From the NCBI GenBank assembly GCA_036679645.1, contig JAZDCY010000087.1:1-23359 (forward strand): a stretch of DNA of 23,359 nt, written 5' to 3'. The position numbers were made by a program, and so were the translations under genes. This document shows, piece by piece, positions 1,771 to 20,806 of this stretch (position 1 is the first letter of the stretch; every line of letters begins with the position of its first letter). The notes below the pieces were generated by a model. That model had not been told where the DNA came from. It saw nothing but the letters and a program-made list of their open reading frames with translations, and made no database searches. This DNA is from Gemmatimonadota bacterium. GTDB lineage: Bacteria > Gemmatimonadota > Gemmatimonadetes > Gemmatimonadales > GWC2-71-9.

Positions 1771-1917
1771 CCTTTTCCGGGTCCCGCGTCTTCGGCGCAA
1801 GCTCCCGGTTCTTCAGTCAGTGATGTCGCTAGGGAAGTCGTCTTCGCCGAGCGCTTCGCCGCCTGCCAAAACGCCTGCTACTTCACGTCACATCCACTGT
1901 CGACGGATTCGGGCGTC
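1767..1917 (-). pseudogene. Remnant fragments of the genes at 5107-5912 and 6223-6520
   Basis: 1767-1805 matches 5255-5293 (34/39 nt). 1813-1917 matches 6223-6331, starting at the same TCAGTCAGTGATGTCGC stop-codon context. Confidence 0.85.
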
Positions 1918-2443
1918 ATGACAACGCTCGCCCCTCCGCCACAATGATGCTGGCACGCCGCAATTGCTCTTGAAACTTCTGTTCCGTCATGTCGACTCTG
2001 AGTCGCTTCGTGTGCCCGATTTGCCGATAGGCCGCTTCGAGCGACAGGAGCTGGTCTGTAAAACCCAGTGCATGCGCGGAGGTGATCGCGGCGCCGTCCC
2101 CTGTTACCAGGGCCATGTCTTCGGTCGCGTGGTGCACCAGATATGCGAGCGCCTCTTTCTCCCCGGGGTCCAGTTTCGCGCGTAAGCCGGGGTGGAGCCG
2201 TCCGAGGAAGGCGGCTTGTTCAGCCGGTGTGGCCGAGCACTTCTGTATCACCCCTTCATCGACCTCGGCCTCGAGACCCAAGAGGCGCCGTTGGCCGTCG
2301 GTGTCGAGGAAGTATGTCACTTCCTCGATGACCGTCTCGGCCACAACGATACCGTAGTGTTCCCGTAGGAGAAGCCACCCGTCGCATTGGTGCGCGCAGA
2401 TGCACGCGTCGGCGTCAACCAATAGTAAGCGCGGCCGAGTCAT
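1916..2443 (-). CDS. PIN-domain protein (putative ribonuclease toxin)
   Basis: Start taken at MTRPRLLLVDAD. PIN-type acidic motifs LVDAD, TVIEEV, LDPGEKEALA and LVTGDGAA. Overlaps the 3' end of the upstream XRE-ImmA gene. Confidence 0.75.
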   Translation of the reverse strand: MTRPRLLLVDADACICAHQCDGWLLLREHYGIVVAETVIEEVTYFLDTDGQRRLLGLEAEVDEGVIQKCSATPAEQAAFLGRLHPGLRAKLDPGEKEALAYLVHHATEDMALVTGDGAAITSAHALGFTDQLLSLEAAYRQIGHTKRLRVDMTEQKFQEQLRRASIIVAEGRALS

Positions 2444-3605
2444 CGTACTGCTCGTCAAACCCATGCCGCGACAACTCGCCTAGGGGCACCTCGAGACATT
2501 GAGCGGCCTTCGCGCGCCCGATCTCGCCACGCTGGTAAGCCGACCGAACGAGGTCCACGAAGCGGTCGGTGAACGGCCGTTCCGGCGTGGTCCAGTGGTC
2601 TTGGGACGCGGCTTGCCATGCCGCCTGGAATACGGCGTCACCACGTACCCGCTCCTTGTCTCCTTCTGAAATGACACCAAGCGTTGACAGCCGGATGACC
2701 ATGGCCTCGAGCGACACGCCAAAGTCCATAGCGAGGTTGGCCATGTCCCCGGGGCTCAGTTTCCCGTCCCGTGCCCTTACACGTACGCGTTCGAGTAGCT
2801 CACCAGCGGGAGACAGTAACACGGAGGCAAAAGCGTTCGCCTGCGCTTCGAGCTTGTTGTACCACCAGGGAGCCGTCTCTTGGTCTCGCTCCCAGAGCGC
2901 GCGGACAGATTCCCACGTCACGAGATGGAAGAGTTCGTGTGCGAGGCTGAACGTGCGGCGCCACGGCGGCTCGTCGCGGCTCAGCAGGACTGCCGCCCCG
3001 AACTCGCCCATTGCGCATGCGGCCGACCCGTCCGGGTCGTCTCCCAGGCTCTCGTAGAAGACCTTCACCCCATACGTCTCTTCGAGAGTTGGAAGAAGCG
3101 CACGGGCAGGTCGGTTACCGAGGTTGAGCTGTTCGGAGACCTGCTCGGCGATCCCCCGCGCAAGTGTGGTGTTCGCCCGTGCGGGATCGTGGGGAATCTC
3201 AGGGAGTTGCCGGGTGGGCCACTCGTTCGCCCACTCCATCACGAGCGCGTAGCGCGACGCCCGGTCTATCAACGCGGCTTCGCGCTGCATCCGCCGGTTG
3301 GCGTCGGCGTGCGGCTGGCCAGCGGCCGTTCGCCAGAGCACGAGTGCGGGTGTGGGCATCGGTTCGAGCCCGAGAAGCACCTCGATACCCACCCGAAGCA
3401 GGCCGGCGAGTTTGGCAAGTTCGAAGGCTTTGACCTGTCGGTCACCCCGTTCGAGGGCAGATACCGTCTCGCCGGCCTTCCATCCCATGGCCCGGGCCAC
3501 CTCGTCCTGAGAGAGTCCGGCCCGCTCCCTAGCCCGTCTGACAGCCGCAGCGATCAGGTTTGGGGATCCGGGAGTGGCCGGCTTGCGGGAGCGCGACTTT
3601 GGCAT
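2415..3605 (-). CDS. XRE helix-turn-helix fused to ImmA/IrrE-family zinc metallopeptidase
   Basis: N-terminal RRARERAGLSQDEVARAMG..TVSALERGDR (XRE HTH); RRTFSLAHELFH (HExxH) followed by EAQANAFASVLL. Confidence 0.92.
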   Translation of the reverse strand: MPKSRSRKPATPGSPNLIAAAVRRARERAGLSQDEVARAMGWKAGETVSALERGDRQVKAFELAKLAGLLRVGIEVLLGLEPMPTPALVLWRTAAGQPHADANRRMQREAALIDRASRYALVMEWANEWPTRQLPEIPHDPARANTTLARGIAEQVSEQLNLGNRPARALLPTLEETYGVKVFYESLGDDPDGSAACAMGEFGAAVLLSRDEPPWRRTFSLAHELFHLVTWESVRALWERDQETAPWWYNKLEAQANAFASVLLSPAGELLERVRVRARDGKLSPGDMANLAMDFGVSLEAMVIRLSTLGVISEGDKERVRGDAVFQAAWQAASQDHWTTPERPFTDRFVDLVRSAYQRGEIGRAKAAQCLEVPLGELSRHGFDEQYDDSAALTIG

Positions 3606-3865
3606 CAGGTGATTCCTGAACGGTTGGGAAGATACTGCCTACAACCTAGCTCATTGTTGGGAGTTCTCAAGTTTTTCTTGATTAGCAGTGAGATCGCAGC
3701 AAGTCAGGCCTAGTCGTAGGTGTCGAGGCCGGATCGGCTTGGACCCACGGTCTGCACTCGCCAGTCCATGCGGGAGACCCTCGGCGGTCCCGTTTCCTTC
3801 GGTTATCTTGAGCTGGCTTGGGCTGTCCGAGGTTGTATTATTGTCCCAAGTCACGCCTAGTATCC

Positions 3866-4600
3866 GTGGAGGCACCTCTGACCCGCCCGCACGTCCCCCT
3901 TGGAGTCGGCATCTACAGCCGAGCCGAAGCCGCCCGCTTGCTTCGCCTCACGCCGCAGCGGTTAAGCCGGTGGGTCCGGGGGTACACCTATTGGCTCAAG
4001 TCCGGTCCTGCGCCGCGTCGCACGCGGCAGCCTCCCGTTGTTCGCACCGACCTTCCTACGATCGACGGCACCGTCGCGCTTTCCTTCCTCGAGCTGATGG
4101 AGCTGCGGATCGTCAAGGCGTTCATCGAGAAAGGTGTGCCTCTACAGCGCGTGCGAGTCGCGGCACGCCGCATCCAGGAGCTTTTTGGAATCCCGCATGC
4201 GTTCGCGCACCGGCGTGTTTTCACCGATCACGAGGAGGTCTTCGTGGGGCTGTCGTCTTCAGAGCCGCAGCCCGACTTGCTGCAGGTCACGGGGAAGCGC
4301 GCGACGCTACAGGTGATAGCGGGAAGCCTTTTCGAGCACTTTGTGGAGGAAGTCGATTTCGACCCGAAGACCTCGCTAGCCGAGCGTTGGTTTCCGCTCG
4401 GGCGCGGCGTCCCCATTGTTCTAGATCCTCACATTGCGTTCGGTGCACCGGTTCTTGTTGGCACGAGGATTCGTACCGACGTCTTGGCGTTGTATGCCTC
4501 CGGCAACAAGAGTGACACGGTGGCACGCGCGTTCGAGCTGACGCGACCTCAGGTGACGGCCGCTACCGATTTCGAGGCCCAACTGGCGCGCGCCGCTTGA
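3866..4600 (+). CDS. DUF433-domain protein with N-terminal HTH (VapB45-like antitoxin)
   Basis: GIYSRAEAARLL..LSRWVRGY, LSFLELMELR, and C-terminal IVLDPHIAFGAPVLVGTRIRT. GTG at 3866 is preferred to the longer ORF start at 3818 (judgement). Confidence 0.85.
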   Translation: MEAPLTRPHVPLGVGIYSRAEAARLLRLTPQRLSRWVRGYTYWLKSGPAPRRTRQPPVVRTDLPTIDGTVALSFLELMELRIVKAFIEKGVPLQRVRVAARRIQELFGIPHAFAHRRVFTDHEEVFVGLSSSEPQPDLLQVTGKRATLQVIAGSLFEHFVEEVDFDPKTSLAERWFPLGRGVPIVLDPHIAFGAPVLVGTRIRTDVLALYASGNKSDTVARAFELTRPQVTAATDFEAQLARAA

Positions 4601-4691: not shown

Positions 4692-5081
4692 GGCTGGATG
4701 TACTATGATTCCTACGCCCATGATCTCATTGACTGCTCCGACCCTTTTCACGCTTGGATACCAGCAGCGCTCGCTCGACGAGTTCGTGGCGCTGCTCCTC
4801 GAAGCATCCATCGACGTACTCGTCGACGTACGCGAGACCGCATGGAGCCATAAACCCGGATTCTCGAAGCGTGGCTTTTAACCCACGCCTTGGGTGATCA
4901 CGAGATCGCCTATGTTCACGCGAAGTTCGCCGGCAATCCAAAGCACCTGCGCAAGTCAGCCGCGTCACATGGGGAGTGTTTGCGCCTTTATGCTCGCCAC
5001 ATTGAATCCAACGCAGCGATCATCGAGACCTTCGACGAACTGATTGGCCGTCTCCTGGATGCCGGGAAGCGCGTGTCGCCG
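4692..5081. repeat. Direct repeat copy B (DUF488 region); partner at 1385-1770
   Basis: Direct alignment with 1385-1770. Confidence 0.95.
4720..5081 (+). pseudogene. DUF488-family protein, copy B, frameshifted near 4877 and truncated
   Basis: LFTLGYQQRSLDEFVALL..DVLVDVRETAWSHKPGFSKRG, then GGCTTTTAA vs GGCTTAA in copy A (+2 nt, giving a stop at 4881). The remainder is in ORF 4890-5165. Family resemblance ends at the same GKRV point as copy A. Confidence 0.8.
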
Positions 5082-5106
5082 ACGACAGTTGCCGTATTCG
5101 CTAGAC

Positions 5107-5912
5107 CTACGACGAGTCCAGTAGATCGAGTTGGTCGGCGAGTTTCGGATACCAGAGTCCGATGATACCGAACTGGTACATTCTCATCCGGAAACTCCCC
5201 ATGAACAGCTTGAAGTCATGCTCATCCGGATTCGTTATTGACCGCAGGCGGCTAGCCGCCTTTTCCGGATCTCGCGTCTTGCGCGCAAGTTCCAAGAGTC
5301 CCCAGTCGAGCACACTCATGTTGTGGGGTCCGTCGGCACATTCGTCGCATGCCCCAGCGCACCGCCAAGCGAGCCGGATTGTGTAAGGTAGGTACTCCAG
5401 CTCCTTGTATTGCGGGTGGAAGAGGTCCGGTTGTGCCTGGATCTCTCGCCACTTCTCTTGGAAAGCGGCCTTATCTCCCAATGGACGTACTTGCACTTCT
5501 ACACCTTCGATCGTTCTGACCGACACGATGCCCATTGAAAGGCCAGATGCGCGGCGCGCGGCCTTCAGGTCGGCAACGCTGTCAAACTGCCAGCCGACGT
5601 GGCGGAACATGATCTCGCGACGTTGGCGCCAGTGATCGGAGGTGTCCACGTGCGCGACGACCCGAATGGCCTCGCTCATTACCTTGTAGCTCTCCGGGCG
5701 CGGATCACTGTGACTTTTCTGGATCGGCACGTCGATCCAGTCGTAGAGCCCGTATTGCTTTGAGCCGTCCAGGTAGCGAAGCGGGACAGGATACAGCCTG
5801 ATCGGCCGACCGTCTTCGCGCACGGCGCCGTGCAGACCGTCTCGACGTATCTGGCACTGAGTTCGGGATAGGTTTTGCCCCAGATCAGGGCACGAATCGT
5901 ATCGTAAGCCAC
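5107..5912 (-). CDS. Conserved hypothetical protein (KTYP...ETVCT...RLYPVP...DPRPES family, recalled as a DUF488 neighbour); 1-nt frameshift near 5831
   Basis: GGAGG RBS then GTG at 5912. MAYDTIRALIWGKTYPELSARYVETVCT (ORF 5679-5912) joins GAVREDGRPIRLYPVPLRY...IIGLWYPK (ORF 5107-5973) if one base is restored at TGC AC- GGC GCC. Confidence 0.75.
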
Positions 5913-6051
5913 AAGCCTCCGGACCGCTCGGACGTTCTGATGCGTCGATAAGCGGCCAACGATCCGGTGTCAAGCGCGTTACACCGCCCGTAGGTGCGTT
6001 CCTTCGCTGCTACACCGACCACGGACAACTCCTAAGCCTCGACAGACCGAT

Positions 6052-6198
6052 TCAGCATCGTCGGTACTGCGTGTTCTGCCCCTTGCCGCAGTTGCCACAC
6101 GGCGGCAACTGATCGTCGGCGTCGTCGAGCACGACCGCCCAGTCACAGTTGGTGCAGCAATACCGACCCTTTCCGGGTTTCTCCCCGATGTCATGCAT
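6052..6198 (-). CDS. 48-aa zinc-ribbon protein
   Basis: Below the ORF-track cutoff. AAGGAG RBS, then MHDIGEKPGKGRYCCTNCDWAVVLDDADDQLPPCGNCGKGQNTQYRRC*, with two CxxC pairs and the GEKPGKG..LPPC pattern of small zinc-ribbon proteins. Confidence 0.85.
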   Translation of the reverse strand: MHDIGEKPGKGRYCCTNCDWAVVLDDADDQLPPCGNCGKGQNTQYRRC

Positions 6199-6222
6199 CT
6201 CGTTCTCCTTGATTGTCAGGCG

Positions 6223-6520
6223 TCAGTCAGTGATGTCGCGACGGAATGTCGTGTCGGCCGAGCGCTTCGCCGCCTGCCGAAACGCCTGCTGCTGTTTCAC
6301 GTCACGCGCACTGTCGACCGATTCCGGTGTCTCGACCTCGACGATCTTCCGTTCCCAACCCTTCTTCACGACAACATCCGGCCTGTACCCGGTGATCGTA
6401 CCGGGCTTCGAGAACCCCTCGATATCGGCCTTCACGTCAAACCCGTGCTTTCTCATGCGTCCGAGCTACTTCACACACACGCTCGTCGTGCTCCGTTTGA
6501 GACTTCTTGCTCCGAGTCAC
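6223..6520 (-). CDS. Small PD-(D/E)xK-like (restriction-endonuclease fold) protein, probable +1 frameshift near 6451
   Basis: GTG at 6520 gives MTRSKKSQTEHDERVCEVARTHE. Removing one A in GAGAAAGCAC continues into KHGFDVKADIEGF..GYRPDVVVKKGWERKIVEVET. Motif is PD..EVE. The alternative is a 77-aa ORF from ATG at 6456. Confidence 0.6.
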
Positions 6521-6587
6521 ATGGATTTCCTCGTGATGGTTGAACCGCAGGTCAGTCCCGTGATCGCCGTGTTCGGTGACCTCCTGC

Positions 6588-8120
6588 TTAGACCACAAGG
6601 TCTACGTCGGTCGGACGGCTTCTTGCGTCCAAGATCCGGCGTCGCCGGACGGCCTCGATGTTCTTCTTCCTGGTCGTGCACACGCAATCGCGGTGGCGCG
6701 CCTGCGGGTAGAGGAGCCCGCCCTGGGGTCCCTGCAGAGCGTCGAACTGAAACTGCGGCTCGAGCACAGAGTTCAGTCCGGCCGCGTACTTGATCAGTTC
6801 CCCAACCACCATCGCAGCGCTCATGCATGCGACGAACGGGACCGACGGTGCCGGAGGAGCGGTCTGATCGGTTGTCAACGTCCGAGCCATCGCCTCGTCT
6901 ACCACCGAACAGATCCTCTTCCCAACGTATGCCGCGAGCCGGTCGCGCTTCTCGGCCGGTGCACCCTCCACATCTTCGACTGTTACGAGTTCGTCCCCTT
7001 TGACCACTCGTTCGGGACTCAGACCGGTCATCTGGCTCTGCAGGAGGTCCGCACGGTGGGCCCGCGGTTCGCGGTAGACGCACCGTAGGCAACCGATGTT
7101 GGGTCCCCACGGGTGCTTCCCAACACCAGCTAGGAGATCCCCGATCGCGCCGTCGATTACGACATCGAGCCAGAGGTCCTGAATCGCGTGCCGAGCCTCG
7201 ATGGTGTCCACGGCGCCTAAAACCACGTCCGGGTACTGGATTTCGAGTCCGAGTCGCTGGTCGAAGGTTTCGATGTCTTCGACGAAGCCAGTTGCAGCGA
7301 TCCCGGTTTGAAAACGGGATGCGAGATACTCAGCCTTGTCCTGCCCAAGCGCCTCGCGTCCGACGAGCACTGACGTACCGAGGTTCTCGTCCGCGTACTG
7401 TTGCGGATCGACTATCGCTAGCGTGCCGGTGAAGGGGAGCTGACGGAGGAGGTAGACGATGCCATTACCGATAGTCCCGCCGCCCACGAGTACGGCGTTG
7501 AGCAGCATCGGGGAGATCGCTGGTCCTGCCGTCTCGGATGTGCAGTCGTAGGAGAAGAGATCGAACTCCAAGAACGGCCAGAGCGATCCGCGGCTTTCCC
7601 GCAGTGCGATCAGGCGTTTGAACACCTCTGCCGTGCCGAGGCTGGCGGCGAACAGCGCGGCTACCGGATTGGTGTTCGATGTTGTCGCAGGAAGGTCGCC
7701 GCCGCCGGAAGCGACCATGGCATGCCAGCCATCCGAGTTCACCGTCGTCCACGGAAGATCGGAACGGCCGGTAGCGCCGACGCTCAGGATGGCGTCGAAG
7801 GAACTCAGCGTGGGTCGCTCTTGGAATTGGATGGGCGATGCAAACTCGAGCTGACGAGCGGTCGCCCCGATGTCCTCGCCAAGCCCAGGCACATTTAGCG
7901 GGACGTGCACCGTTAGCTGGGTGGTCATCGACCTCAATAGGCGCAAGGAGGCTTCGAAACATGTCCGACCGTTTGGCGTGCGAAGGACCTCCGGCTCACC
8001 CGTCAGTAGGACCCGCTTCTCCGGAAAGCGGTGGCGATCCGCAGCGTGTTCGCCAAGAGCCGCCGCCACGCCCATCGGCCGACTGAAGGCCGTCTGGCGG
8101 TCTACTGCGGAACTAGGCAC
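6588..8120 (-). CDS. bilD: E1-like ThiF-family ubiquitin-like activating enzyme (BilD-like)
   Basis: ~200-aa N-terminal degenerate adenylation-like region (NPVAALFAASLGTAEVFK); VLVGGGTIG nucleotide-binding loop; IVDPQQYADENL; GAVD; CLRC and C-terminal CVC as zinc ligands; candidate catalytic Cys404 (GKRICS) before PSVPFV. Symbol assigned from operon context. Confidence 0.88.
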   Translation of the reverse strand: MPSSAVDRQTAFSRPMGVAAALGEHAADRHRFPEKRVLLTGEPEVLRTPNGRTCFEASLRLLRSMTTQLTVHVPLNVPGLGEDIGATARQLEFASPIQFQERPTLSSFDAILSVGATGRSDLPWTTVNSDGWHAMVASGGGDLPATTSNTNPVAALFAASLGTAEVFKRLIALRESRGSLWPFLEFDLFSYDCTSETAGPAISPMLLNAVLVGGGTIGNGIVYLLRQLPFTGTLAIVDPQQYADENLGTSVLVGREALGQDKAEYLASRFQTGIAATGFVEDIETFDQRLGLEIQYPDVVLGAVDTIEARHAIQDLWLDVVIDGAIGDLLAGVGKHPWGPNIGCLRCVYREPRAHRADLLQSQMTGLSPERVVKGDELVTVEDVEGAPAEKRDRLAAYVGKRICSVVDEAMARTLTTDQTAPPAPSVPFVACMSAAMVVGELIKYAAGLNSVLEPQFQFDALQGPQGGLLYPQARHRDCVCTTRKKNIEAVRRRRILDARSRPTDVDLVV

Positions 8121-8643
8121 CGACCGTTATCACTTCGGCGAGCTGACTCGTATCGATCCGCACTCGTTTTTCGACCTCCGCTGTGCCGAGCCTCCGGTAT
8201 CCCGTGCCCGTTTCGAATACATGGACGCCGCAGTCCATAATGGTCGTGGACGGTCGTTGAGCGAAGTCGGGCGCGACGATCGACAGGTAGTGGGGAACGG
8301 CTACGCCGTACTTCCGGTCCGTTTCCGAGAGGCTCGTTGAGTAACCGATGCCGTGCGAGTGGATCTGACCGATTAGGCACACGCCTGCATCGATCGCGAA
8401 GTCGGTCACGTCGTTTAGAAGCCACGACTCGATCACCATCAGCTCCGGACCCTTCCGAACTCCCGGTCCCCGGAGCAAGACCACGTGCGAGACGGAGGCG
8501 CGGCCGGACTTCCGGTTGCCGAGCCACAGCGCGACTCCTTCGTTGCCCCGGGCGCCGTCGCGCGCCATATCGGCCAGGGACACGTCGAGAACGTCGGCCG
8601 CCAGGCGCCAGCGATCGACCCTTGGGAAATAGCGTTCGCTCAT
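8113..8643 (-). CDS. bilC: JAB/MPN (JAMM) metallo-isopeptidase (BilC-like)
   Basis: NEGVALWLG ... GQIHSHGIGYSTSLSETD matches E..HxH..S..D. The ATG at 8643 forms an ATGA overlap with the E2 stop. Confidence 0.9.
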   Translation of the reverse strand: MSERYFPRVDRWRLAADVLDVSLADMARDGARGNEGVALWLGNRKSGRASVSHVVLLRGPGVRKGPELMVIESWLLNDVTDFAIDAGVCLIGQIHSHGIGYSTSLSETDRKYGVAVPHYLSIVAPDFAQRPSTTIMDCGVHVFETGTGYRRLGTAEVEKRVRIDTSQLAEVITVGA

Positions 8644-9080
8644 CGGAATCGGCGTTGGAACTGCGTGTCCAGCTCGTCTTGCAGGGTCCGCAACACTCTC
8701 AGCAAAGGATTGCCGTGGGAGTCCCACGCCATTCGAGGGTCTCGCCGCCACTCGGGGTGGAGCGCAAAGCCCTCCGAACACCAGTTCACGCAGGCGTCGA
8801 GGCTCTGGGGTCTGAATCCGCGGACAACGGGCCAGGCGCTGGCAACATCCAATCGTCCCGTGTCCGGATCCCGGAATTTCAGCGACGGAGCTTCATCGGG
8901 GTACTTTCCCCAAAGCCATCTCGCTTGAAACAGTTCGTGAGCTGCGGGCGTCGGCGCCATGGTTGATAGCACCTCCAGCGACCCGAGCAGATCGAGCGCC
9001 CATCGTTCGGCATCGGGCAATTGCAGGACGGCTTCGTAATCGTCCTTGAGATTCAAAACCGAGAGTTCGTCGGCGGTCAT
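8640..9080 (-). CDS. bilB: E2-like ubiquitin-conjugating protein (BilB-like)
   Basis: KYPDEAPSLKF is the E2-fold YPxxxP motif; also AWP, candidate Cys97/Cys101 (DACVNWC) and HPEW. Lies between the Ubl and JAB genes with ATGA overlaps on both sides. Confidence 0.8.
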   Translation of the reverse strand: MTADELSVLNLKDDYEAVLQLPDAERWALDLLGSLEVLSTMAPTPAAHELFQARWLWGKYPDEAPSLKFRDPDTGRLDVASAWPVVRGFRPQSLDACVNWCSEGFALHPEWRRDPRMAWDSHGNPLLRVLRTLQDELDTQFQRRFR

Positions 9081-9364
9081 CCCTGCACGATCATCTTCTG
9101 CAGCTTCAACTGCAGAACGTGGTGATCGCCGGCGATGTCGCCAAGGGTCCGACTGAGGTCCTCGAGCGGCTCTTTCTTCGCGAAGAGCGTGTAGGTCGCG
9201 AGGTTGCCGTCTTCTGTCGGCCCCTCCGTAAGGCCGAAGGCGGAAAGGACACGTTGTTTGAGCTGTCCGACTGTCTCGCTCGGGTCCGCCGAATCGTCCT
9301 TGAAGGGCTCGCCGGCTGCCGGGAAATGGACAACTAGCTTAAGCTTGATCGCTACGGTCATCAT
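9077..9364 (-). CDS. bilA: Ubiquitin-like beta-grasp protein ending in Gly (BilA-like)
   Basis: 95 aa; ETVGQLKQRVLSAF helix; LEDLSRTLGD resembles ubiquitin LEDGRTLSD; ends LQLKLQKMIVQG*. AGGAGG RBS upstream. Confidence 0.85.
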   Translation of the reverse strand: MMTVAIKLKLVVHFPAAGEPFKDDSADPSETVGQLKQRVLSAFGLTEGPTEDGNLATYTLFAKKEPLEDLSRTLGDIAGDHHVLQLKLQKMIVQG

Positions 9365-9393
9365 GCCCTCCTAGGAAACGGTACTATGCTAGT

Positions 9394-9413
9394 CCGCAGA
9401 TCTGCTGTTTAGC
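9394..9413. promoter_or_regulatory. Candidate operator upstream of the Ubl gene
   Basis: CCGCAGATCTGCTGTTTAGC contains the perfect palindrome GCAGATCTGC and is 17/20 identical to 10511-10530. Confidence 0.65.
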
Positions 9414-9442
9414 GTAGTCCATGGCCCAAAAAACCGCAAGCC

Positions 9443-10156
9443 CTACTCAAACAGGGGCTCAGCCCCCACGGCTTCCGCGAGGTGCCCAAGTTGCAAGAGC
9501 CGCACGCGTGCCGCGGCCGACGATACGGAAAAAGCGCCCGCCACGCGCTGCACGAGCCCATGACCGAGCCGAGAATCGGCAGCCACCAAACCAAGGTGCG
9601 GCTCGCTTGCGAAAACCTTTCGGACCAGGGCCCCGATCTCGGTGGAGGGCATAAGCAGAGCCCCAGAAGCATAACCAGCCTGCCATTCCATCCAGTCGGT
9701 TACGGCCGCCTGCAGAATTGTCTCGCGCCTACACTGCTGCAGCTCACCAGTCTCGGACTCGAAAAGATCGAGTTCTTTACTCTTTTCCTGCCACAGCTGG
9801 TCATGGAAGCAGACGTGTCCGTATTCGTGAGTCAGCGTGGTGCGGAAGCGGTTTTCGTTGAATTCCTGAGTGCTGAGTTCACTGGCTATTCGGACTACTG
9901 GACGCTCCCCGGACTGAAACTCTGTCACACCTTCAACGCCAGCCCCTTCCAGGCGCAGATCAGCATACAGATCAAGTTCCCGGGTATCGCGCTCAATCAG
10001 CTTCGTCAGCGTATCTGTTGGAATCGGGTACATGGGTTGCCCGTGAACCTGAATCATGAACTCCGTGATGGTACGTTCGCACTCAAGATCGAGCTCAGCA
10101 CGGTCGTAGAAGGGCCGTGAGGGAAAACGGCCGGTGGGATCACGTATGTACTTCAC
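9443..10156 (-). CDS. ImmA/IrrE-family metallopeptidase (CapP-like)
   Basis: NRFRTTLTHEYGH (HExxH), WMEWQAGYASGALLMP, and C-terminal FSVSSAAARVRL. Directly downstream of an XRE HTH gene. Confidence 0.9.
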   Translation of the reverse strand: MKYIRDPTGRFPSRPFYDRAELDLECERTITEFMIQVHGQPMYPIPTDTLTKLIERDTRELDLYADLRLEGAGVEGVTEFQSGERPVVRIASELSTQEFNENRFRTTLTHEYGHVCFHDQLWQEKSKELDLFESETGELQQCRRETILQAAVTDWMEWQAGYASGALLMPSTEIGALVRKVFASEPHLGLVAADSRLGHGLVQRVAGAFSVSSAAARVRLLQLGHLAEAVGAEPLFE

Positions 10157-10167
10157 GGGCCGGACCG

Positions 10168-10470
10168 CTAACGTGCTAGGTTCCGGCGAAAGGTCTTGTA
10201 CGCGCTAACCACCTTCTTTCTATCGCGAGCCTTCTTTAGGTCGGCTGGCAATGTACCTGCGAGGTGATACAGATAGTCCTTGTCTTCTCGTAACACCCGG
10301 GCGAGTTCTTCAACGACGTGTGCTGATGGTATACGGCGGTCGCGCTCGATGTCGTTCAAATACTGCGGCGATATCGGTTCCCCATCCTCCTTTCGGATTC
10401 TATTCGCCAGTTCCTTTTGACTCAGGGGAAGTTTCTTTCGCGCTTCAGCGATCACTTGACCGAAGGTCAT
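10168..10470 (-). CDS. XRE-family HTH transcriptional regulator (CapH/ImmR-like)
   Basis: MTFGQVIAEARKKLPLSQKELANRI..ISPQYLNDIERDRRIP; GAGG RBS. Confidence 0.92.
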   Translation of the reverse strand: MTFGQVIAEARKKLPLSQKELANRIRKEDGEPISPQYLNDIERDRRIPSAHVVEELARVLREDKDYLYHLAGTLPADLKKARDRKKVVSAYKTFRRNLAR

Positions 10471-10510
10471 AACGCCTCTAGCGGGTTGTAGTAGCGATTG
10501 GGATGCTCAA

Positions 10511-10551
10511 CCGCTGATCTGCAGATTAGCAGAGAAGTGTATTGGTGTCAA
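10511..10551 (-). promoter_or_regulatory. sigma70-type promoter with overlapping palindromic operator for the HTH-peptidase-Ubl operon
   Basis: Minus strand TTGACA (10551-10546), 17 nt, TAATCT (10528-10523). The near-palindrome GCTGATCTGCAGATTAGC (10513-10530) covers the -10 box. Confidence 0.75.
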
Positions 10552-10568
10552 CGACATATGCGCCGGCC

Positions 10569-11753
10569 TCACTGGAGGCTTCGAAACGCCCGCTGCGCGA
10601 GCGAGTTGAAGAGATCGTTGTGATGATCCTGTGCCTCGACTGCCTCGTGCCACAGCTTGCCGTGGCGTTCCAATACCTTAGTGAAAACCTCCCGAAGATT
10701 CAGTGGCGGAACAGGGACTGGCAGTTCCTTGACGTCCCCCAGGTTGATCCCACGGACCGCCACGCCCTTTACAAAACGTTGCATGAGCTGCTGCATCGGC
10801 TCAGATGCCAAGCACATTTGCATGTATGGAGCCATGTGAGTCCCGATGATCGCCAAACGGGCCGTATCTTGGGTGATATTACCGCCTTCGAGTTCCTTCG
10901 GAGTCACCGCGATCCGTCCCACGTGACCCCTGATTGAGAGGAGTACGTCACCCGCCCGAAGCATCGATCTCTTGTACGCTTCCGCAATCTTTCTTGTGGT
11001 TCTCCTGACCGCATCTCTCACCGTGCCTTCAACCATGTCGACGACTCTGACGTAAGGAATTCCGTCGGGTTGGTCGGGGCCAGGTTTTAGGATGCCGTAC
11101 GTGATGGGACGGTCAGGATCGACTAGCTCTCGAAGCGTACGGACCTCCCACCCCTTCTCATTCCGCACCGGATCCCCAAACATCTCCAAGAACACCGACC
11201 GCAAGAACTCATCCAACAACCCCACCGCCTCCCGCCGCTTCCGCCGCACCGCGTCCGCCTTGTCCAACATCGCGGCAATTCGGCGCTGCTCGGCCAAGGG
11301 GGGGAGGGGAATTCGCTGGGCTCGCAGGAACGACGTCGGGACGCGCTTTTGCCCGGCAGTCCCGGTCATATTGCGCTCGGCCACGAAACGGAAGCGGGCG
11401 TTCCAGACCCCGTAGAACAAGTACCGCGCGTCGATCTCAGGGCCCGGTCGCAGCACATGGAATTCCGTGGAGCCGAATCCCACACTCGTTGGCATCGTAT
11501 CGAGTAGGGCTGCCTTTCCGTTCTCCATGCACGGTGTGATCTTCGCCAGGAGGACGTCGCCGCGCTCGAAGTACGTGTAGCCCTTGAGCACGTCCGCGAT
11601 TTGTCGCTCCTCGTGGTAGCTGACTGTCGCGTCCTCCGACACCGAAGACATCGGCAGGAATGTCACTCGCTCAGACGCGCGTTCCCTCACTCCCTTTGCG
11701 GTGGACGGGTTGATCTCCGCGACAGCGCTCAAGGGCACGAGTCGGGTGCTCAA
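10569..11753 (-). CDS. hsdS: Type I restriction-modification specificity subunit
   Basis: Two target-recognition domains separated by IPLPPLAEQRRIAAMLDKADAVRRKR...FLEMFGDPVRNEKGW; ends LFNSLAQRAF. Confidence 0.96.
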   Translation of the reverse strand: MSTRLVPLSAVAEINPSTAKGVRERASERVTFLPMSSVSEDATVSYHEERQIADVLKGYTYFERGDVLLAKITPCMENGKAALLDTMPTSVGFGSTEFHVLRPGPEIDARYLFYGVWNARFRFVAERNMTGTAGQKRVPTSFLRAQRIPLPPLAEQRRIAAMLDKADAVRRKRREAVGLLDEFLRSVFLEMFGDPVRNEKGWEVRTLRELVDPDRPITYGILKPGPDQPDGIPYVRVVDMVEGTVRDAVRRTTRKIAEAYKRSMLRAGDVLLSIRGHVGRIAVTPKELEGGNITQDTARLAIIGTHMAPYMQMCLASEPMQQLMQRFVKGVAVRGINLGDVKELPVPVPPLNLREVFTKVLERHGKLWHEAVEAQDHHNDLFNSLAQRAFRSLQ

Positions 11754-14657: not shown

Positions 14658-17304
14658 CTAACTCGTCGCGAGCCTCCCCACGAACTGCAGGATCTCTTCG
14701 ATCTCGGCAGGCCGGAAAACTCCCCGAATCCCCTGGGGGTGAATCTGGGTGAACGGCCGCTCGATGAGATGGCTCTTTTCGACCAGGCCGGTCTGAAGGA
14801 TGAACGTTCGGAGCGTCTGGATGAATCGGATCTGCAACGCCGAGTAGTCGTTGTGTCTCCCGATGAAGTCGTCGAACGCGCGTGTGATCTCCGCGGACCA
14901 ACTCTCCACCAGCTCCAGGCCCAGCACGTGGCGCAGCAATTGGAGGAAGTTCGCTGTCCGTGCGTCGTAGACCTGTCTGAGTTGCTCCTCCGTGATGTAC
15001 GGGTCCTGGCCGCGCAGGAGACTGGCCAGCTCCCGCAACTCCGTCTCGCTCACCTCCTCGCCCCGCTGGATCTTCTGAAGCACCGGGTTCTCGGCCACGA
15101 GAGTGCGGATGTACGTCTCCACCCTTTCCCGGTACGCGGCGGTCGACAGGCGTTCGTGTTCCGGTCCGAACTCGATGTATTCCTTCAGCACGACCGCGTC
15201 TTCGAGATCGAGCTTGAGGATCGGGTCCCGGTGGCGCTGCCGGTATTTCATGAGCGGACCGAGCCTCTGCACCAACTCGCGTAAGCCAGCGTCATCCGCC
15301 CCCTTCCACCACGCCTCTTTGAGTACCCGATCGATAAGCGGCTTCTCTTTCGCCACGACGTTCACCGTGAGGGGCAGCTCTTCCACCTGCGTCCGCACGG
15401 ACTCCTTCAACGCCTCGACCGCATCGTCGTTGCGGGATAGCAAGGCGGTCCCCAACTCCACCACGTCCGTCTCGAACCGCAGCGCCTTGAACTCGGCGTC
15501 CGTGCGTACGCGCATGACGGGAGCGATTACCGTCCGGAGAAAGCCAAGGTCCTCAGGCCTGAGTCTCTCCCAGTACGAATCATCCCCGCTCTGAGGTCCG
15601 TCTTGATGGTCTCGATTACGTTAGTCGCACCTTCGGCGAACGCGACCTCCAGCTTGTCCAGCCGCGCCTTGAAGAGCCGCACCGGCACGGGTACCTGAGT
15701 GCCCGGTTCCCGGCCCTCGGGTTGCATGTCGAAGTACTCGAAGTTTCCCCAGCAGTCGATGATCAGGAACCGGTCCTTCTCGGTGCACCACGGTTTGCGT
15801 TTCTCCGGATCGGCATCGAGAATTCGCGTGCCCCGGCCGATCATCTGCCAGAACTTCACGTAACTGTAGACCGGCTTGGCGAAGACCAGGCTTACGACCT
15901 CGAGGATGTCGACGCCCGTATCCAGCATGTCCACCGAGATCGCAACGCGCGGCATGTCAGACGTCTTGAACTGATCCAGCAGTCCGCCTTTACCGTAGAC
16001 GAATCGGTCCTCGGAGACCAACACGCGGGCCAGGCGTCCGCGATGTTCCGGGTACAGCGCGTCGAAGATTTCCTGAAGGCGCCGCGCGTGTTTCTTGGAA
16101 ATCGCAAAGATGATCGTCTTCCCCGGCAGCGTACCCGAGGAATCCTTGATGCACTCCTCCATGAACTCGCGGACGATGAGTGCGTTGGTCGGTGCGTTGG
16201 TGACCTTGCGCTCGAGATCGGTGCCCGCGAAATCGATGTCCTCGACGTCCAGTCCGTCCGCTGTGAGCTTCTGTTGAATGGGCGGTGGGAGCGTGCCGCC
16301 GTGAATTCCCTCGAGCTGGAACTTCGAGCGGACTTTGAGCACTTCGAAGTTGCACAGGTAGGGAGGATCGTGCTCGATGGCTTCCTGATACGAATACGCA
16401 AACGACGGTTCACCCGGATCGCACTCGAACAGTTGGAACGTGTCGTGGTCTACGTGATCGCGCGGCGTCGCGGTCAGGCCAAGTTTGATTCCGTGGAAGT
16501 AGTCCACGACGTGCTGGTACGTGTTGTAGATGCTCCGGTGGCTCTCGTCAGCAATGATGAGATCGAAGAAGAAAGGCGAGATCCAGGTTCCCGGACTCGT
16601 ACCGGCCTGGATGCGGCTCAGCATCGTGGGATACGTGGTCACGTAGATGCGGCGGTTTGCGGCCCACGTGTGCTCGCCCTGCTTGGGCCAGGGCGGTGCC
16701 GCGGGCATGAATTCCTTGAACGCGCCCAGCGCCTGATCTCTGAGTGCAATCCGGTCGACGAGAAAGAGCCCCCTTCGAGGAGACTGCGGATAGCGGCAAT
16801 CTGGTAGTCCCGACCGGCGATATCTGTATCGATCAGCTCGACCGACAGCGGTTTCCGGCTCTCGCGTCGTTGGACGAGCCACTCGAGGTCGTCGGGTGTG
16901 GGGAAGCCGTGCACGGTGACAGGCGGATAGTGATCCGACTCCCAGTGGTAGATGTCGTAGCCGTTCGTGTACATGACGAACGGCGTTGCCCCACCGTGGA
17001 TTTTCTGGAGGTTCTCCGCGTACCGCAGCGCCTGTTCCTGGCCGAGCCGCGCGTCCTTCGAGGTACGCTTCGCTTCAACGACCGCCGTGGGCTTCCCGCG
17101 GAGTAGCAGCCCATAGTCGGCGAATTGGTGGCCCTCGTAGGGATGATCCGGTCGCTCTTCCCCCACGAAGAGTCCTGCCTTGCGCAGTTCGATATCCAGT
17201 TCCTGAATTACGTGCGACGGGTCGCGCACGTCCCAACCCGCCAGCGCGAGTTTCTCGTCGATGATCTGCTGGCGTGTTTGGGCTTCGTCGTAAGGCCGTG
17301 TCAT
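14658..17304 (-). pseudogene. hsdR: Type I restriction endonuclease R subunit (EcoEI-like), split into three frames by two apparent deletions
   Basis: FADY..VVEAKR nuclease motif and RDYQIAAI (ORF 16639-17304); LFLVDRIAL, IADESHRS, LTATP, MLDTGVD, QMIGRGTR (ORF 15527-16882); EcoEI-type C-terminus (14658-15515). No GxGKT Walker A between RDYQ and LFLVDR (break near 16770); second break near 15588. Confidence 0.9.
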
Positions 17305-17324
17305 GCAGACGGCTCCGTGGTCGG

Positions 17325-20300
17325 TTAGGCCAGCGCCTCGCTCACGATCCGTTGCTGTTCTGCCTTGTGCGCGGCCGGATACCCCTCGGCGGGGCTCGAG
17401 CGCTCGGGCCGCGAGATCCAGCGGACGGGAAGGCGGTCATGCACGATCATCTCGATCTTAGGCACCATCCACTTGCGGGGGCCCATGTTCTCAGGCTCCT
17501 CCTGCAACCACACGATCTCTTGCAGCTTGGGGTATTGCTCGATCACCTCCTCGAGCCGCTCGTCCGGCAGTGGGTAGAGCAACTCGATCCGCCCGACGGC
17601 GACGTGCACCGACTGCTCGCGTTGTTCCGCGGCCACTACATCGTAGTACACCTTACCCGAGCAGAACACGAGACGCGTGACGGCGTCGCGGCCATTGGCG
17701 CGCTCGGCGTCGTCGATCACCGGGGAGAACCCGCCGGTCGCGAGGTCCGTGAGAGACGAGATCGCCTTTGGATGGCGCAGCAGGCTCTTGGGCGTGAAGA
17801 TCATGAGCGGGCGCGCCTCCGAGTGCAATCCCTGGCGGCGCAGCAGGTGGAAGTACTGAGCCGGCGTGGAGCAATTCGCTACACGGATGTTGCCCTCGGC
17901 GGTCAGCGCGAGAAACCGTTCGATACGCGCGCTGGAATGTTCCGGGCCCTGTCCTTCGTACCCGTGAGGTAGCAGGAGGGTTAGACGCGATGTCTGTCCC
18001 CATTTCGCGAGACCCGCTATGAGAAACTGATCGATGATGATCTCCGCGCCGTTCACGAAGTCGCCGAACTGTGCCTCCCAGATCACCAACGCCTCGGGAA
18101 CATCCGACGCATACCCGTACTCGAATCCCAGCGCGCCGTACTCGGAGAGCGGCGAGTTGTGTAACTCGAGCGGCGAGGTTGCCCCGGTGATCTGCTGTAC
18201 CGGCACATGCTCATCACCGGTCTCGGCATCGTGCAGCACGAGATGACGCTGACTGAAGGTGCCGCGCTCGGGCGGGACTCCATCCTGCCGCAGCGAGCCA
18301 AGCGCCAGCGCTTCAGCCTGTGCCCAGTCCAGCCCGCCGCCGTTCTCCGCGACTGCCGTACGCTGCGCGAACTGACGCACGAGTTTGCGGTTCAGGTGGA
18401 AGCCGTCGGGGACGGTGTACAATTCCGCATTGAGTTGGCGCAGGCGTGTATCGTCGACGGTGGTGTCCGGTTCGCCGGCTGCGCGAAACATGCTCGATAT
18501 GCGGTCGGGTTCTTCGCCCTCCTCCAAACGTTCGATGTCCTTGCGCAACCGATCCTGAGTGTCGCTCAGTTCCTGGTAGACTCGTGCCGATTCGGCCTCC
18601 GCCTCGTCGGCGGTAAGGACCTTCAAGTCCACCAGCCGTTTCGCATACAGATCGCGCACCGGCGGATGACCGTCGATGAGCTGGTACATGAGCGGCTGCG
18701 TGTAGCGTGGCTCATCGCCCTCGTTGTGTCCGTGCCGGCGGTATCCGACCAGGTTGATTACGAAATCCTCCTGGAACTTTTTCTGGTACATCAGGGCCAG
18801 CCGTATCGCGGCCAGGCACGCTTCGGGGTCATCGGCGTTCACGTGGGCGATGGGCACGTCGTAACCCTTTGACAAGTCGCTTGCGAAGTCGGTGGACCGC
18901 GAGTCGGCCGGATCTGTGGTGAACCCCACCTGGTTATTAGTGATGATGTGGAGCGTCCCACCGGTGTCGTAGCCCTCGAGGTTCGCGAGGTTCAAAGTCT
19001 CCGCGACGATGCCCTGGCCGGCGAACGCGGCATCGCCGTGAATCAAGACCGGGAGCACCGGGGTGGGGTCGTGGATCGCCTCGGGGCCGGACCGATCGGT
19101 CTGCTTGGCGCGAGCGTTGCCCTCGACGACGGGATTCACCGCCTCCAGATGGCTCGGGTTCGGCATGAGCGTGATGCCGATCTCTTCGCCGTGCACGGTC
19201 GTGTAGGTCCCGCTGGCGCCGTGATGGTACTTCACGTCTCCCGTCCCGCCGGCAGCCCATCATGGAACGCCACGTCGAGTGTCGCGTGCAGCATCGGGAC
19301 CAGCATATCCAGTCCCTCGATGCCGAACCGCTTGTGGCCGAGGTAGTTCTTGTGCAGGAATCGCTCGAGTACGTCGACGCACGTAAGCTGGCCCAGCAAT
19401 CGTTTCTTCTCTTCGTCGGTCAGCGGAGTCCGGTGCTCCCCTGACTCGATGACACGCCGCAACCAGACGCGCTCTTCGTGAATGGAGATGTGCTCGATCT
19501 CGTAGGCGATCGTGCCGCAATATGTCTCCCGCAGTCGGGGGAGGATGTCCGCGAGCGTTTCACCGCCCACGTAGGTGCGGAACACCGGGGCCGGCAGCGC
19601 GCGCATGATGTCGGGCGTGAGATCCAGCGACTCGGGATCGAGCGCGGGATCGCCGCGCGGTGCCGTGCCGAGGGGATCTAGCTGTGCGGCCAGATACCCG
19701 TGTGTTCGATGGGCTCGCACGAGCGACATGGCGGCGGCCACGTGATAGAGTTGCTCCGCGGGTACGCCACCAGGCGCGGGAGCCAGGGCGGTCGTGGCCG
19801 GGGCGGACGCGGCGGCGACCGCCCTGCCGCTCTCCCACTCCGCGCCCATCTCCTCCGCGATCTCGTCGTAGAATCTGTGCTCGCCTTGCAGCAGCGCATC
19901 GACGTACTGCAGGAACAGTCCCGACTCGGCTCCCTGGATGATGCGGTGGTCGTAGGTGGACGTGATCATCATGAGCCGGCGTCCTGCCAACTCACGGATC
20001 GTCCCAGAGGCAATGATCGAGCCCTGGCCCTTCTTGGTGAGCGTGATCGTCCCGCCCATATACGCGTCGGGCATCAGCTTGCTCGCTCGCGCGCCCGCGA
20101 CGAGCCGCTCGTACTCCCGGTGGTACTCGGCGAACGTCATGGTATCCGCAGCCTTGAGGATGGGGACCATGAGCCCCCGGCTGCCGTCCTTGCGTTCCAC
20201 GTCTACCGCGAGGCCAAAGTTCACGGCGTCGGGCTGTGTGCGGTGCGGTCCGTCCTCCGTGTCGAGCACGGCGGAGATCATCGACGGGAACTGCTCGCAT

Positions 20301-20806
20301 GCCCGCACGATGGCCCAGCCGATGATATGTGTGAACGAGAGCTTGAGTTTGCGTGCCGCTATCTCTCCGTTCACGAACTTCCGGAAGTCCCACAACCGTG
20401 TGACCTCGATCTCGCGGAACGACGTCGCGGTGGGCAGATCGAGCGATGCTTCCATGTTCTGGAGCAATCGTAGGGCGGGACCGGTTATCGGGCTGCCCGA
20501 AGTGGCGGCGGGAGACTTGGGAGGTGACTTGTCCTCGTCCTTTCGGTGTGGAGGGGTCTCTGCCTTGCCGCGGTCTACCGGGAGCACGTCCGCTGCGGGC
20601 GGCTCGCCCTGCAGTCCCTGCTCGAACAACTCGCGCCACTCCGGCGGCACGGAGTTGGGGTCGCGCAGGAAATCTTCGTACAGCGCCTGCGCGAATCCGG
20701 AGTTGACGGTCTCGAATACGTTCTCGAACACTGGGTTGTGGCTCTCCGTAGCGGCTGAGTGCGTCGGGGACTCTGAGAAGATAAGGTGCATGGCTCCCGG
20801 CGGCAC
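17325..20806 (-). CDS. sucA: Multifunctional 2-oxoglutarate dehydrogenase E1 / Kgd (N-terminal E2-like domain + ThDP-dependent E1), apparently disrupted near 19250
   Basis: LYEDFLRDPNSVPPEWR, TYDHRIIQGAESG, KRFGIEG, GDVKYHHG, NPSHLEAV, IHGDAAFAGQG, GYRRHGHNEGD, WEAQFGDF, GYEGQGPEHSSAR. Split into ORFs 19232-20806 and 17325-19235. The true start may be GTG at 20731. Confidence 0.93.

Follow-up and report, generated by a model that had tools for sequence, protein, structure and literature searches.

A complete Bil-like operon predicted to conjugate a ubiquitin-like protein in a Gemmatimonadota bacterium, probably apart from both described Bil types and preceded by a co-oriented HTH-peptidase pair

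We identified a complete four-gene operon of the Bil family in a 23,359-nt stretch of a Gemmatimonadota contig (JAZDCY010000087.1, assembly GCA_036679645.1; the whole stretch is referred to as the window). In the reading that we consider probable, this operon belongs to a clade separate from Bil Types I and II, would tag its targets, likely phage structural proteins, with a single ubiquitin-like protein (Ubl), and is likely repressed by an adjacent helix-turn-helix (HTH) protein until a peptidase cleaves that protein. The argument draws on predicted folds and family assignments, invariant catalytic residues, a conserved gene order, and paired palindromes.

The genes for the Ubl, the E2, the JAB peptidase, and the E1 are intact on the minus strand (Table 1), with positions, frames, and overlaps as given in an earlier note on this DNA (ATGA for Ubl/E2, ATGA for E2/JAB, and 8 nt for JAB/E1), and AGGAGG sits ahead of the Ubl gene. 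The note's picture of four translationally coupled genes with Ubl, E2, JAMM, and E1 signatures was borne out, the catalytic residues being invariant in 54 to 120 homologs, as was its BilABCD gene order: all four genes occur in 78 of 103 related loci, and all 78 show the order Ubl-E2-JAB-E1 found here (21 of the 25 incomplete loci are cut by contig ends). A contig from a public run matches the window across positions 6327-11177 with neither a difference nor a gap; it is not independent biology, because it probably comes from the source sample.

Table 1. Features of the Bil-like locus in the window
Feature	Position	Strand	Properties
BilD-like E1, inactive + active adenylation domain	6588..8120	-	510 aa
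BilC-like JAB/JAMM peptidase	8113..8643	-	176 aa; E35, H95, H97, S106, D109
BilB-like E2	8640..9080	-	146 aa; Cys97, His108
BilA-like single beta-grasp Ubl	9077..9364	-	95 aa; ends IVQG at conserved Gly95
Operator-like site 2	9396..9413	.	inside palindrome 9383-9418, in 78-bp gap ahead of Ubl gene
M78 zinc peptidase, HTH-like tail, no GAF domain	9443..10156	-	237 aa; Pfam M78 24 bits, PADLOC capP E 2e-9
XRE-family HTH repressor, CapH/ImmR-like	10168..10470	-	100 aa; Pfam HTH_3 E 8e-12, PADLOC capH E 2e-6
Operator-like palindrome, site 1	10513..10530	.	overlaps -10 box of HTH promoter
-10 box TGn-TAATCT	10523-10528	-	17 nt downstream of -35 box
-35 box TTGACA, likely sigma-70 promoter of HTH + peptidase genes	10546..10551	-	read by eye
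Downstream genes			77-aa AHJR-like; 48-aa DUF1451-like zinc ribbon; 288-aa PDC-M19B match

All four proteins match Bil proteins. The AF2 model of the Ubl (pLDDT 88.5) has archaeal and eukaryotic ubiquitin as its top Foldseek matches (E = 5e-5; TM 0.68), and that of the E2 (pLDDT 96) has BilB 8tz0_C (TM 0.62; E = 2e-3), in agreement with the beta-grasp and E2 folds proposed earlier for these two genes. PDB sequence searches with the E2 and with the Ubl gave no significant match; fold comparison alone gave matches. The Ubl matches PADLOC BilA at an E value of 0.025, PADLOC BilB is matched by 83 of 120 E2 homologs at E ≤ 0.1, and the neighbors of the E2 in the Atlas are DUF7665/Metal_CEHH. Ubl residue G95 is invariant in 79/79 homologs, and a C-terminal tail extends past this glycine in 35 of 85, the window Ubl itself ending in Gly; the aligned close homologs are 88 to 112 aa long, with L057, L059, and L080, whose ORFs run longer upstream, left out. 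In the E2, C97 and H108 are invariant in 120/120 homologs; the Type I reference L116 does not confirm C97, because Tyr stands in that column. Searches of GenBank phages and of IMG/VR gave no relative of the E2. Four of five long hits are Ubl-E2 fusions, which we rejected as a novelty since such fusions are already recorded in the table of Type II systems of the Chambers preprint (10.1101/2023.09.26.559546).

The JAB peptidase matches PADLOC BilC (E = 9e-10), and its best PDB match by profile is BilC 8tyx (E = 4e-14); the five residues listed in Table 1 are invariant in 75/75 homologs, leaving the metal ligands intact. The E1, which matches BilD 8tyz over its full length (E = 4e-14; by profile, E = 5.5e-36), appears to comprise two adenylation domains and a Cys insert. 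Its residues R14, C344, C347, C404, C479, and C481 are invariant in 54/54 homologs, with 344/347/479/481 as the Zn cysteines and Cys404 as the likely catalytic residue. The C404 column holds Cys in 131 of 133 E1s, and the Type II catalytic Cys falls 8 residues past C404 in a pairwise alignment. As R14 is invariant, the GTG start at 8120 is favored over the later ATG of the database protein P0131. A GTDB genome scan with the E1 as a single protein returned no match; a scan with the E2 alignment found homologs.

The four genes might instead represent a sulfur-carrier or cofactor pathway, i.e., ThiS/MoaD with ThiF/MoeB and a JAB peptidase; the E1 does contain a ThiF domain, and pathways of this kind also employ JAB peptidases. 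However, an E2 fold with an invariant Cys is present, the E1 has the two-domain BilD form, and the Ubl model matches ubiquitin, with no ThiS/MoaD among the matches listed. Moreover, no thiamine, molybdopterin, or cysteine-synthesis family occurs among 70 large neighbors or the recurring neighbor families. A sulfur or cofactor role is thus extremely improbable, and the evidence supports a complete Bil-like E1-E2-Ubl-DUB kit.

Sequence comparisons support a clade apart from both described Bil types, in line with the earlier description of the operon as a divergent version of Bil. In the trees (FastTree and a 24-row IQ-TREE), the window E1 clade excludes the Type II reference L113 (SH 100; 98/90), which is a single reference on a long branch. 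Type I BilABCD (Collimonas sp. OK412; 10.1101/2023.09.04.556158) has the gene order and all four protein classes in common with the window; its BilB is colinear with the window E2 over 127 columns at 24% identity, and its BilD has a Cys at the same loop position as the window E1. In contrast, Type I BilA has two beta-grasp domains (ISG15-like) and the window Ubl a single one, and the window E1 is longer (510 versus 452 aa) and retains the second Zn cysteine pair. The BilD model gives the window 98 bits versus 580 for a true Type I member, the BilA model 13 versus 191, and the BilB model none versus 201. Type II BilABCD (Ensifer aridi, CEHH/6C, PDB 8TYX-8TZ0; 10.1101/2023.09.26.559546) also has this order and shares with the window clade a single beta-grasp Ubl with a conserved Gly and tails of 0 to 8 residues, an E1 with four Zn cysteines and the IAD Arg, an E2 with C-x5-E spacing, occasional Ubl-E2 fusions, and CapH/CapP-type neighbors. 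Its reference L113 is 22% (E1) and 17% (E2) identical to the window, its E2 is longer (205 versus 146 aa), and the clade's host taxa are absent from Type II Supplementary Table 1. The CEHH motif is incomplete, as the window E2 keeps C97, E103, and H108, whereas F105 replaces the first His; this position is F in 109 and F, L, or M in all 120 of the 120 homologs.

The HTH and peptidase genes lie upstream on the same strand as the operon, a layout found in 7 of 63 relatives, and have a GC content of 57%, compared with 62.5% for the operon. A profile search with the HTH matches ImmR 7t8i. An XRE HTH with an HExxH M78 peptidase, upstream of an immune operon, is common to the window, CapH/CapP (10.1101/2022.04.27.489752; 10.64898/2026.05.16.725639), ImmR/ImmA, and DdrO/IrrE, as are a third ligand Glu, a candidate switch Cys, an Arg seven residues ahead of the first His, and a Phe-Arg near the HTH C terminus. 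The peptidase residues H110-E111-H114, E157, and C142 are invariant in 8/8 aligned sequences; C142, which aligns weakly (E = 0.43) with the switch Cys of CapP in 7t5t, is a candidate cysteine switch. The FR motif of the HTH (94-95), present in 5 of the 6 HTHs compared, may be where the protein is cut. Unlike CapP, the window-type peptidases (226 to 239 aa) stop after the HTH-like part without a GAF domain; judged by length and alignment, the window protein ends about 12 to 18 residues past this part, which would leave no room for a C-terminal GAF domain. Since in CapP and IrrE one half of the groove for ssDNA is built by the GAF domain, damage sensing by this peptidase is uncertain.

An 18-bp palindrome stands ahead of both the HTH and the Ubl genes and tracks the HTH subfamily, an observation that is new. 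Sites 1 and 2 are identical at 17 of 20 positions (p ≤ 0.003; 300 shuffles). A weight matrix built from these two sites alone places the five loci with window-type regulators in the top 6 of 83, together with one noncognate locus (L013); with a matrix derived from L050, the top 6 of 83 are the six loci whose HTH belongs to the other subfamily, and the window scores 3.2 bits. At two loci (L095 and L102), HTH and operator occur with no adjoining peptidase gene. A sigma-70 consensus scan found no site and missed the promoter in Table 1 because its -10 box fits at just 3/6 positions.

The earlier proposal of damage-inducible control by the HTH and peptidase gains support from the shared operator-like palindrome as far as HTH control is concerned, and is weakened in its damage-inducible part by the missing GAF domain. 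The pair might instead be an unrelated passenger, or toxin-antitoxin-like, beside a genuine Bil operon, as its layout is rare, its GC content is lower, and published CapH/CapP pairs are nearly all divergent. That one palindrome precedes both genes and varies with the HTH subfamily argues for regulators, and we regard a passenger as quite unlikely.

The co-oriented regulator layout had also been thought possibly undescribed. CapH/CapP beside Bil is already published, adjoining 25 of 162 Type II operons (Chambers preprint, 10.1101/2023.09.26.559546), as is CapK/CapS beside Bil (PMC13373217); what distinguishes the window from CapH/CapP is a co-oriented pair with two operator-like sites in place of one shared divergent promoter. 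CapK/CapS likewise has co-oriented regulators and two repressor sites, one of them ahead of the immune operon, and uses a kinase where the window uses a peptidase.

The defense island setting noted earlier was confirmed, with hsdS, hsdM, Fic, hsdR, a PDC-M19B match, and an XRE-M78 fusion forming a restriction-modification (RM) and toxin-antitoxin island; the Fic protein matches PADLOC SoFic (113 bits). At 16769, where hsdR is broken, and at the kgd breaks, the public-run contig contains additional letters (112, 130, and 21); these breaks consequently look like assembly deletions, and a broken restriction system was rejected at this hsdR junction. A second hsdR junction lies near 15520-15560. 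The idea that the downstream genes belong to the system was not supported: a search of 103 loci, of which 46 extend at least 1.6 kb past the E1, gave no match to them at E ≤ 1e-3, and in 118 loci no match fell below E = 0.04.

Clade members occur in Acidobacteria, Myxococcota, Gemmatimonadota, Verrucomicrobia, and Deinococcus, with E2s 60 to 72% identical across several phyla; the one cultured member, Deinococcus aetherius, carries the operon on a plasmid, pDAETH-1. The clade was found in 2 of 401 genomes of the phylum and in 0 of 165 other genomes of the source bacterium's own family, a patchy spread that fits a mobile defense cassette. Among 20 genome loci, scanned for ORFs of at least 220 aa and without a background control, 8 have a PADLOC neighbor at E ≤ 1e-20 and 12 have no strong one; several sit among housekeeping genes. 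Of the 63 loci whose upstream sequence extends for 1.5 kb or more, 57 carry a regulator of the kind described for immune operons, in four stress-regulator layouts. CapS-like and/or CapK-like genes are present in 23 of 63 loci, a CapS-like gene without an upstream CapK-like gene in 17 relatives, and an ATPase, histidine kinase, and receiver/kinase trio in 15 of the 41 loci whose downstream flanks are long.

Such near-universal stress regulators, together with this trio, would also suit a kit that conjugates the Ubl to host proteins as a general stress or damage response without phage protection, as suspected for Bub, whose operons have the same regulators and which are not known to protect against phage (PMC13373217). 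On the other hand, Type I Bil, the nearest relative that has been tested, is anti-phage and attaches its Ubl onto the phage's central tail fiber (Hor et al. preprint, 10.1101/2023.09.04.556158), the window E2 is colinear with Type I BilB, and the patchily distributed loci often lie beside RM or Abi genes. We therefore judge the host-stress role unlikely, and analogy with Type I suggests an anti-phage role and a phage target for the operon. According to the Gong preprint, neither targets nor defense are established even for Type II.

By analogy with Bil biochemistry, the E1 would adenylate Gly95 of the Ubl, with R14 contributed by the inactive domain, and the Ubl would pass as a thioester from Cys404 of the E1 to Cys97 of the E2, assisted by His108. 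The E2 would then move it to target lysines without an E3, and the JAB peptidase would trim the tails of tailed homologs and recycle conjugates. HTH dimers are predicted to sit on site 1, covering the -10 box of their own promoter, and on site 2, ahead of the Ubl gene, so that one repressor would control its own gene and the operon; a cysteine-switch peptidase would cut the HTH and free both sites. Least certain among these steps is the signal that induces the system. As a tentative extension, the clade may represent a third Bil type, as yet without a name and frequent in lineages from soil and sediment, in which a conserved core of four genes freely exchanges its stress regulator, with at least four kinds in use. 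In the window, a GAF-less cysteine-switch peptidase might read a signal other than the ssDNA of CapP (a redox, zinc, or protein cue) and release two operators at once, and the trio added in the lone-CapS sub-branch may provide a sensing or targeting module that had been missing.

The system class and its link to such regulators are already known, which limits the surprise. Standard profiles score the clade weakly, and no Pfam family covers the window Ubl, E2, or JAB peptidase; Bil-type systems are therefore probably undercounted. With a target known for one Bil system only and the role of Type II open, the clade offers a compact, highly conserved test case with a cultured member. The paired operator provides a direct handle on the control of an immune operon by a repressor and a peptidase encoded in its own orientation, and the same locus lets a GAF-less peptidase be probed for DNA-damage sensing.

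The Bil-like operon is real and intact. All six minus-strand open reading frames lie where the earlier note had placed them, and the overlaps that it described are present (ATGA between the Ubl and E2 genes and between the E2 and JAB genes, and 8 nt between the JAB and E1 genes). A public-run contig, probably from the source sample, matched positions 6327-11177 with 0 differences and 0 gaps. The E1 matched Ensifer aridi BilD (8tyz) along its length (E = 4e-14; profile E = 5.5e-36), and the top structure for the JAB profile was BilC (8tyx; E = 4e-14). A sequence search of the PDB with the E2 returned no match; its AlphaFold model (pLDDT 96) had BilB as the top Foldseek match, followed by eukaryotic E2s (TM 0.62, E = 2e-3), and 83 of 120 E2 homologs touched PADLOC's model of BilB at E<=0.1. 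The model of the Ubl, with a pLDDT of 88.5, matched ubiquitin from archaea and eukaryotes. Because of these ubiquitin and BilB model matches, the beta-grasp and E2 folds proposed earlier withstood the structural tests set to refute them. Among close homologs chosen by similarity (34-71% identity; rows with <85% query coverage left out), invariant residues were C97 and H108 of E2 (120/120), R14, C344, C347, C404, C479, and C481 of E1 (54/54), E35, H95, H97, S106, and D109 of JAB (75/75), and G95 of Ubl (79/79). Judged from these alignments, the operon motifs are not due to chance.

A bona fide Type I operon (L116) gave 191, 201, 204, and 580 bits with the PADLOC BilA to BilD models, and the window 13, none, 36, and 98. 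The window E1 shares 21% identity with the Type I reference and 22% with its Type II counterpart; the two references are 18% identical to each other. An E1 profile of the window's clade gave 666 bits for the window, 654 for Deinococcus, 127 for the Type II reference, and 70 for the Type I reference. In a FastTree phylogeny of 133 E1s, selected by likeness to the query and with a single, long-branched reference per Bil type, a 71-row clade (SH 100) included the window and neither reference; IQ-TREE on 24 of these rows supported the window clade at 98/90. The same tree contains other unnamed E1 clades, and therefore this third branch stands among several outside Types I and II. The window E2 is closer to Type I in layout and lacks the CEHH motif of Type II, whereas the Ubl is single-domain as in the Type II system of E. 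aridi. In the Type I BilB (L116:2669-3139), a Tyr occupies the column of the invariant C97, with a Cys three residues on. A Natrinema zhouii plasmid (L115:2327-5089) carries a haloarchaeal Ubl-E2-JAB-E1 operon, in which the small first gene has no terminal Gly and the insert with the catalytic Cys seems to be missing from the E1. A third Bil type was not found in full-text searches of a collection with few subscription papers; the Type I lists and the CapKS dataset could include members of this clade.

The E2 alignment recovered 103 related loci (23 genome and 80 metagenome), of which 78 hold all four genes, in the same order in 78/78; of the other 25, 21 are truncated by the end of a contig, and 4 have no match despite room. 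Named hosts include Acidobacteriota, Myxococcota, Gemmatimonadota, Verrucomicrobiota, Nitrospirota, Methylomirabilota, and Bacteroidota, and a cultured member is Deinococcus aetherius (plasmid pDAETH-1; E1 identity, 45%), in which a fused XRE-M78 gene, with a HipA-family kinase and DUF3037 coming after it, lies facing the operon (L111:1381-4357). The distribution of the cassette is sporadic: a Bil-like E1 (E<=1e-20) occurred in 6 of 401 sampled genomes of the phylum, only 2 of them with the window's clade, and by the same E1 search this clade was absent from another 165 genomes of the family. Gly is the last residue in 50 of 85 Ubls, and the remaining 35 have tails of 1 to 8 residues, which argues for a maturation role of JAB in many members. 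Four database proteins (P0126-P0129) are natural Ubl-E2 fusions of the window's clade with a QG processing site and then a short linker, from which E2 release would have to come from JAB.

Two near-palindromes flank the regulator genes (see the table); they are identical at 17/20 positions (p<=0.003), and, with up to 3 mismatches allowed, neither 20-mer occurs anywhere else in the genome. With a two-site matrix, the loci carrying a window-type HTH or peptidase (L046, L006, L095, L047, and L102) fell in the top 6 of 83 loci, L013 being the sole outsider. The six loci of a second HTH subfamily ranked first of 83 with their own motif, counting the training locus, and with the scanned stretch hand-set after the peptidase stop for three of the six; this motif did not pick up the window. 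Because the loci are related, the ranks are not independent trials. Repression by the HTH protein is a prediction well supported by sequence. The paired operator was not found in the same full-text searches. The peptidase keeps H110, E111, H114, E157, R103, and C142 in 8/8 sequences, with C142 aligning weakly to the CapP switch cysteine. CapP and IrrE bind ssDNA between their peptidase and GAF domains, according to the Calloji preprint (10.64898/2026.05.16.725639), whereas the window peptidase, judged from length and alignment, is GAF-less and stops right after its HTH-like part. By analogy to the CapH cleavage point F82-R83 in the Lau preprint (10.1101/2022.04.27.489752), the repressor would be cleaved at F94-R95.

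Features of the window and of the gene trio found in related loci
Feature	Position	Setting	Remark
DUF1451-like zinc ribbon, 48 aa	6052-6198	E1's strand, 3' of E1	below Pfam cut-off
AHJR-like nuclease-fold protein, 77 aa	6223-6456	E1's strand, 3' of E1	below Pfam cut-off
Near-palindrome, copy 1	10513-10530	over -10 box of TTGACA-17-TAATCT promoter	
Near-palindrome, copy 2	9396-9413	5' of Ubl gene	
Trio member 1			628-aa SMC/AAA ATPase, Ppl-like C-terminus
Trio member 2			350-aa histidine-kinase ATPase
Trio member 3			receiver-like protein fused to APH/TCAD9-like kinase

Upstream layouts were counted where 1.5 kb or more of sequence precedes the operon, as in 63 of 99 non-redundant loci: an M78 peptidase module in divergent orientation in 27 (3 via Pfam, 3 via an HExxH motif by eye), a lone CapS-like gene in 17 (profile match to CapS 9z71, E = 6e-12), the window's co-oriented HTH and short peptidase in 7, a CapK-like gene in 6 (5 also with a CapS-like gene), and none of these kinds in 6. 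According to the Chambers preprint (10.1101/2023.09.26.559546), CapH/CapP lie beside 25 of 162 Type II operons, upstream and in divergent orientation with a single exception, and CapK/CapS accompany five Bil operons listed in PMC13373217. The earlier note had suggested that both this version and its regulator layout might be undescribed; the divergent version groups as a separate clade in the E1 trees, but an HTH-peptidase pair beside Bil is published. In 15 of 41 long-flank loci (L003, L034, L042, L043, L049, L063, L074, L076, L081, L083, L086, L087, L091, L099, and L101), the trio lies directly 3' of E1, each time with a CapS-like and without a CapK-like gene; these loci may represent a Bil variant of seven or eight genes not described so far.

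None of the 103 related loci has the window's own downstream genes, which does not support them as parts of the system. A mosaic duplicate (1385-1922 versus 4692-6331; 84-95% identity) of a DUF488/PDC-M19B/AHJR-like cassette, with large parts missing, represents a second copy or else a repeat that was collapsed. Positions 1916-4600 hold an XRE-M78 fusion with an unassigned partner of 182 aa, which looks PIN-like by eye and gave no Pfam match, and, on the opposite strand, an HTH-DUF433 gene, which are probable toxin-antitoxin modules. Besides the operon, the window carries hsdS, hsdM, hsdR, Fic, the XRE-M78 fusion, and a PDC-M19B match. Short deletions interrupt hsdR and kgd (sucA), the latter the sole copy in the genome, at 14658-20806; these breaks, outside the operon, are probably assembly errors, because a contig of the same public run (X1) carries the missing letters at 16769 (hsdR), 18271, 19251, and 20033. 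PADLOC neighbors (E<=1e-20) occurred at 8 of 20 genome loci and at none of the other 12, as counts without a background control. No sulfur-transfer or cofactor cluster recurs among 70 large neighbors and the recurring neighbor families of the related loci, which speaks against the pathway setting that the earlier note had named as a refuting condition.

Bil systems and their association with HTH-peptidase regulators have been published before; what stands out here is a clade of its own, the exchange of regulators between loci, the paired operator, and a peptidase that appears to lack the GAF domain. The parts, folds, conserved residues, and paired sites are observed. By analogy with Bil work (among it the Hor preprint on Type I, 10.1101/2023.09.04.556158, and the Gong preprint, 10.1101/2024.11.21.623966), Ubl G95 would very probably be adenylated, form a thioester on E1 C404, pass to E2 C97, and be transferred to lysine in an E3-free manner, with JAB trimming and recycling. 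Kinship to Type I and the genomic context suggest that the operon would, quite likely, tag phage structural proteins and thereby spoil the progeny.
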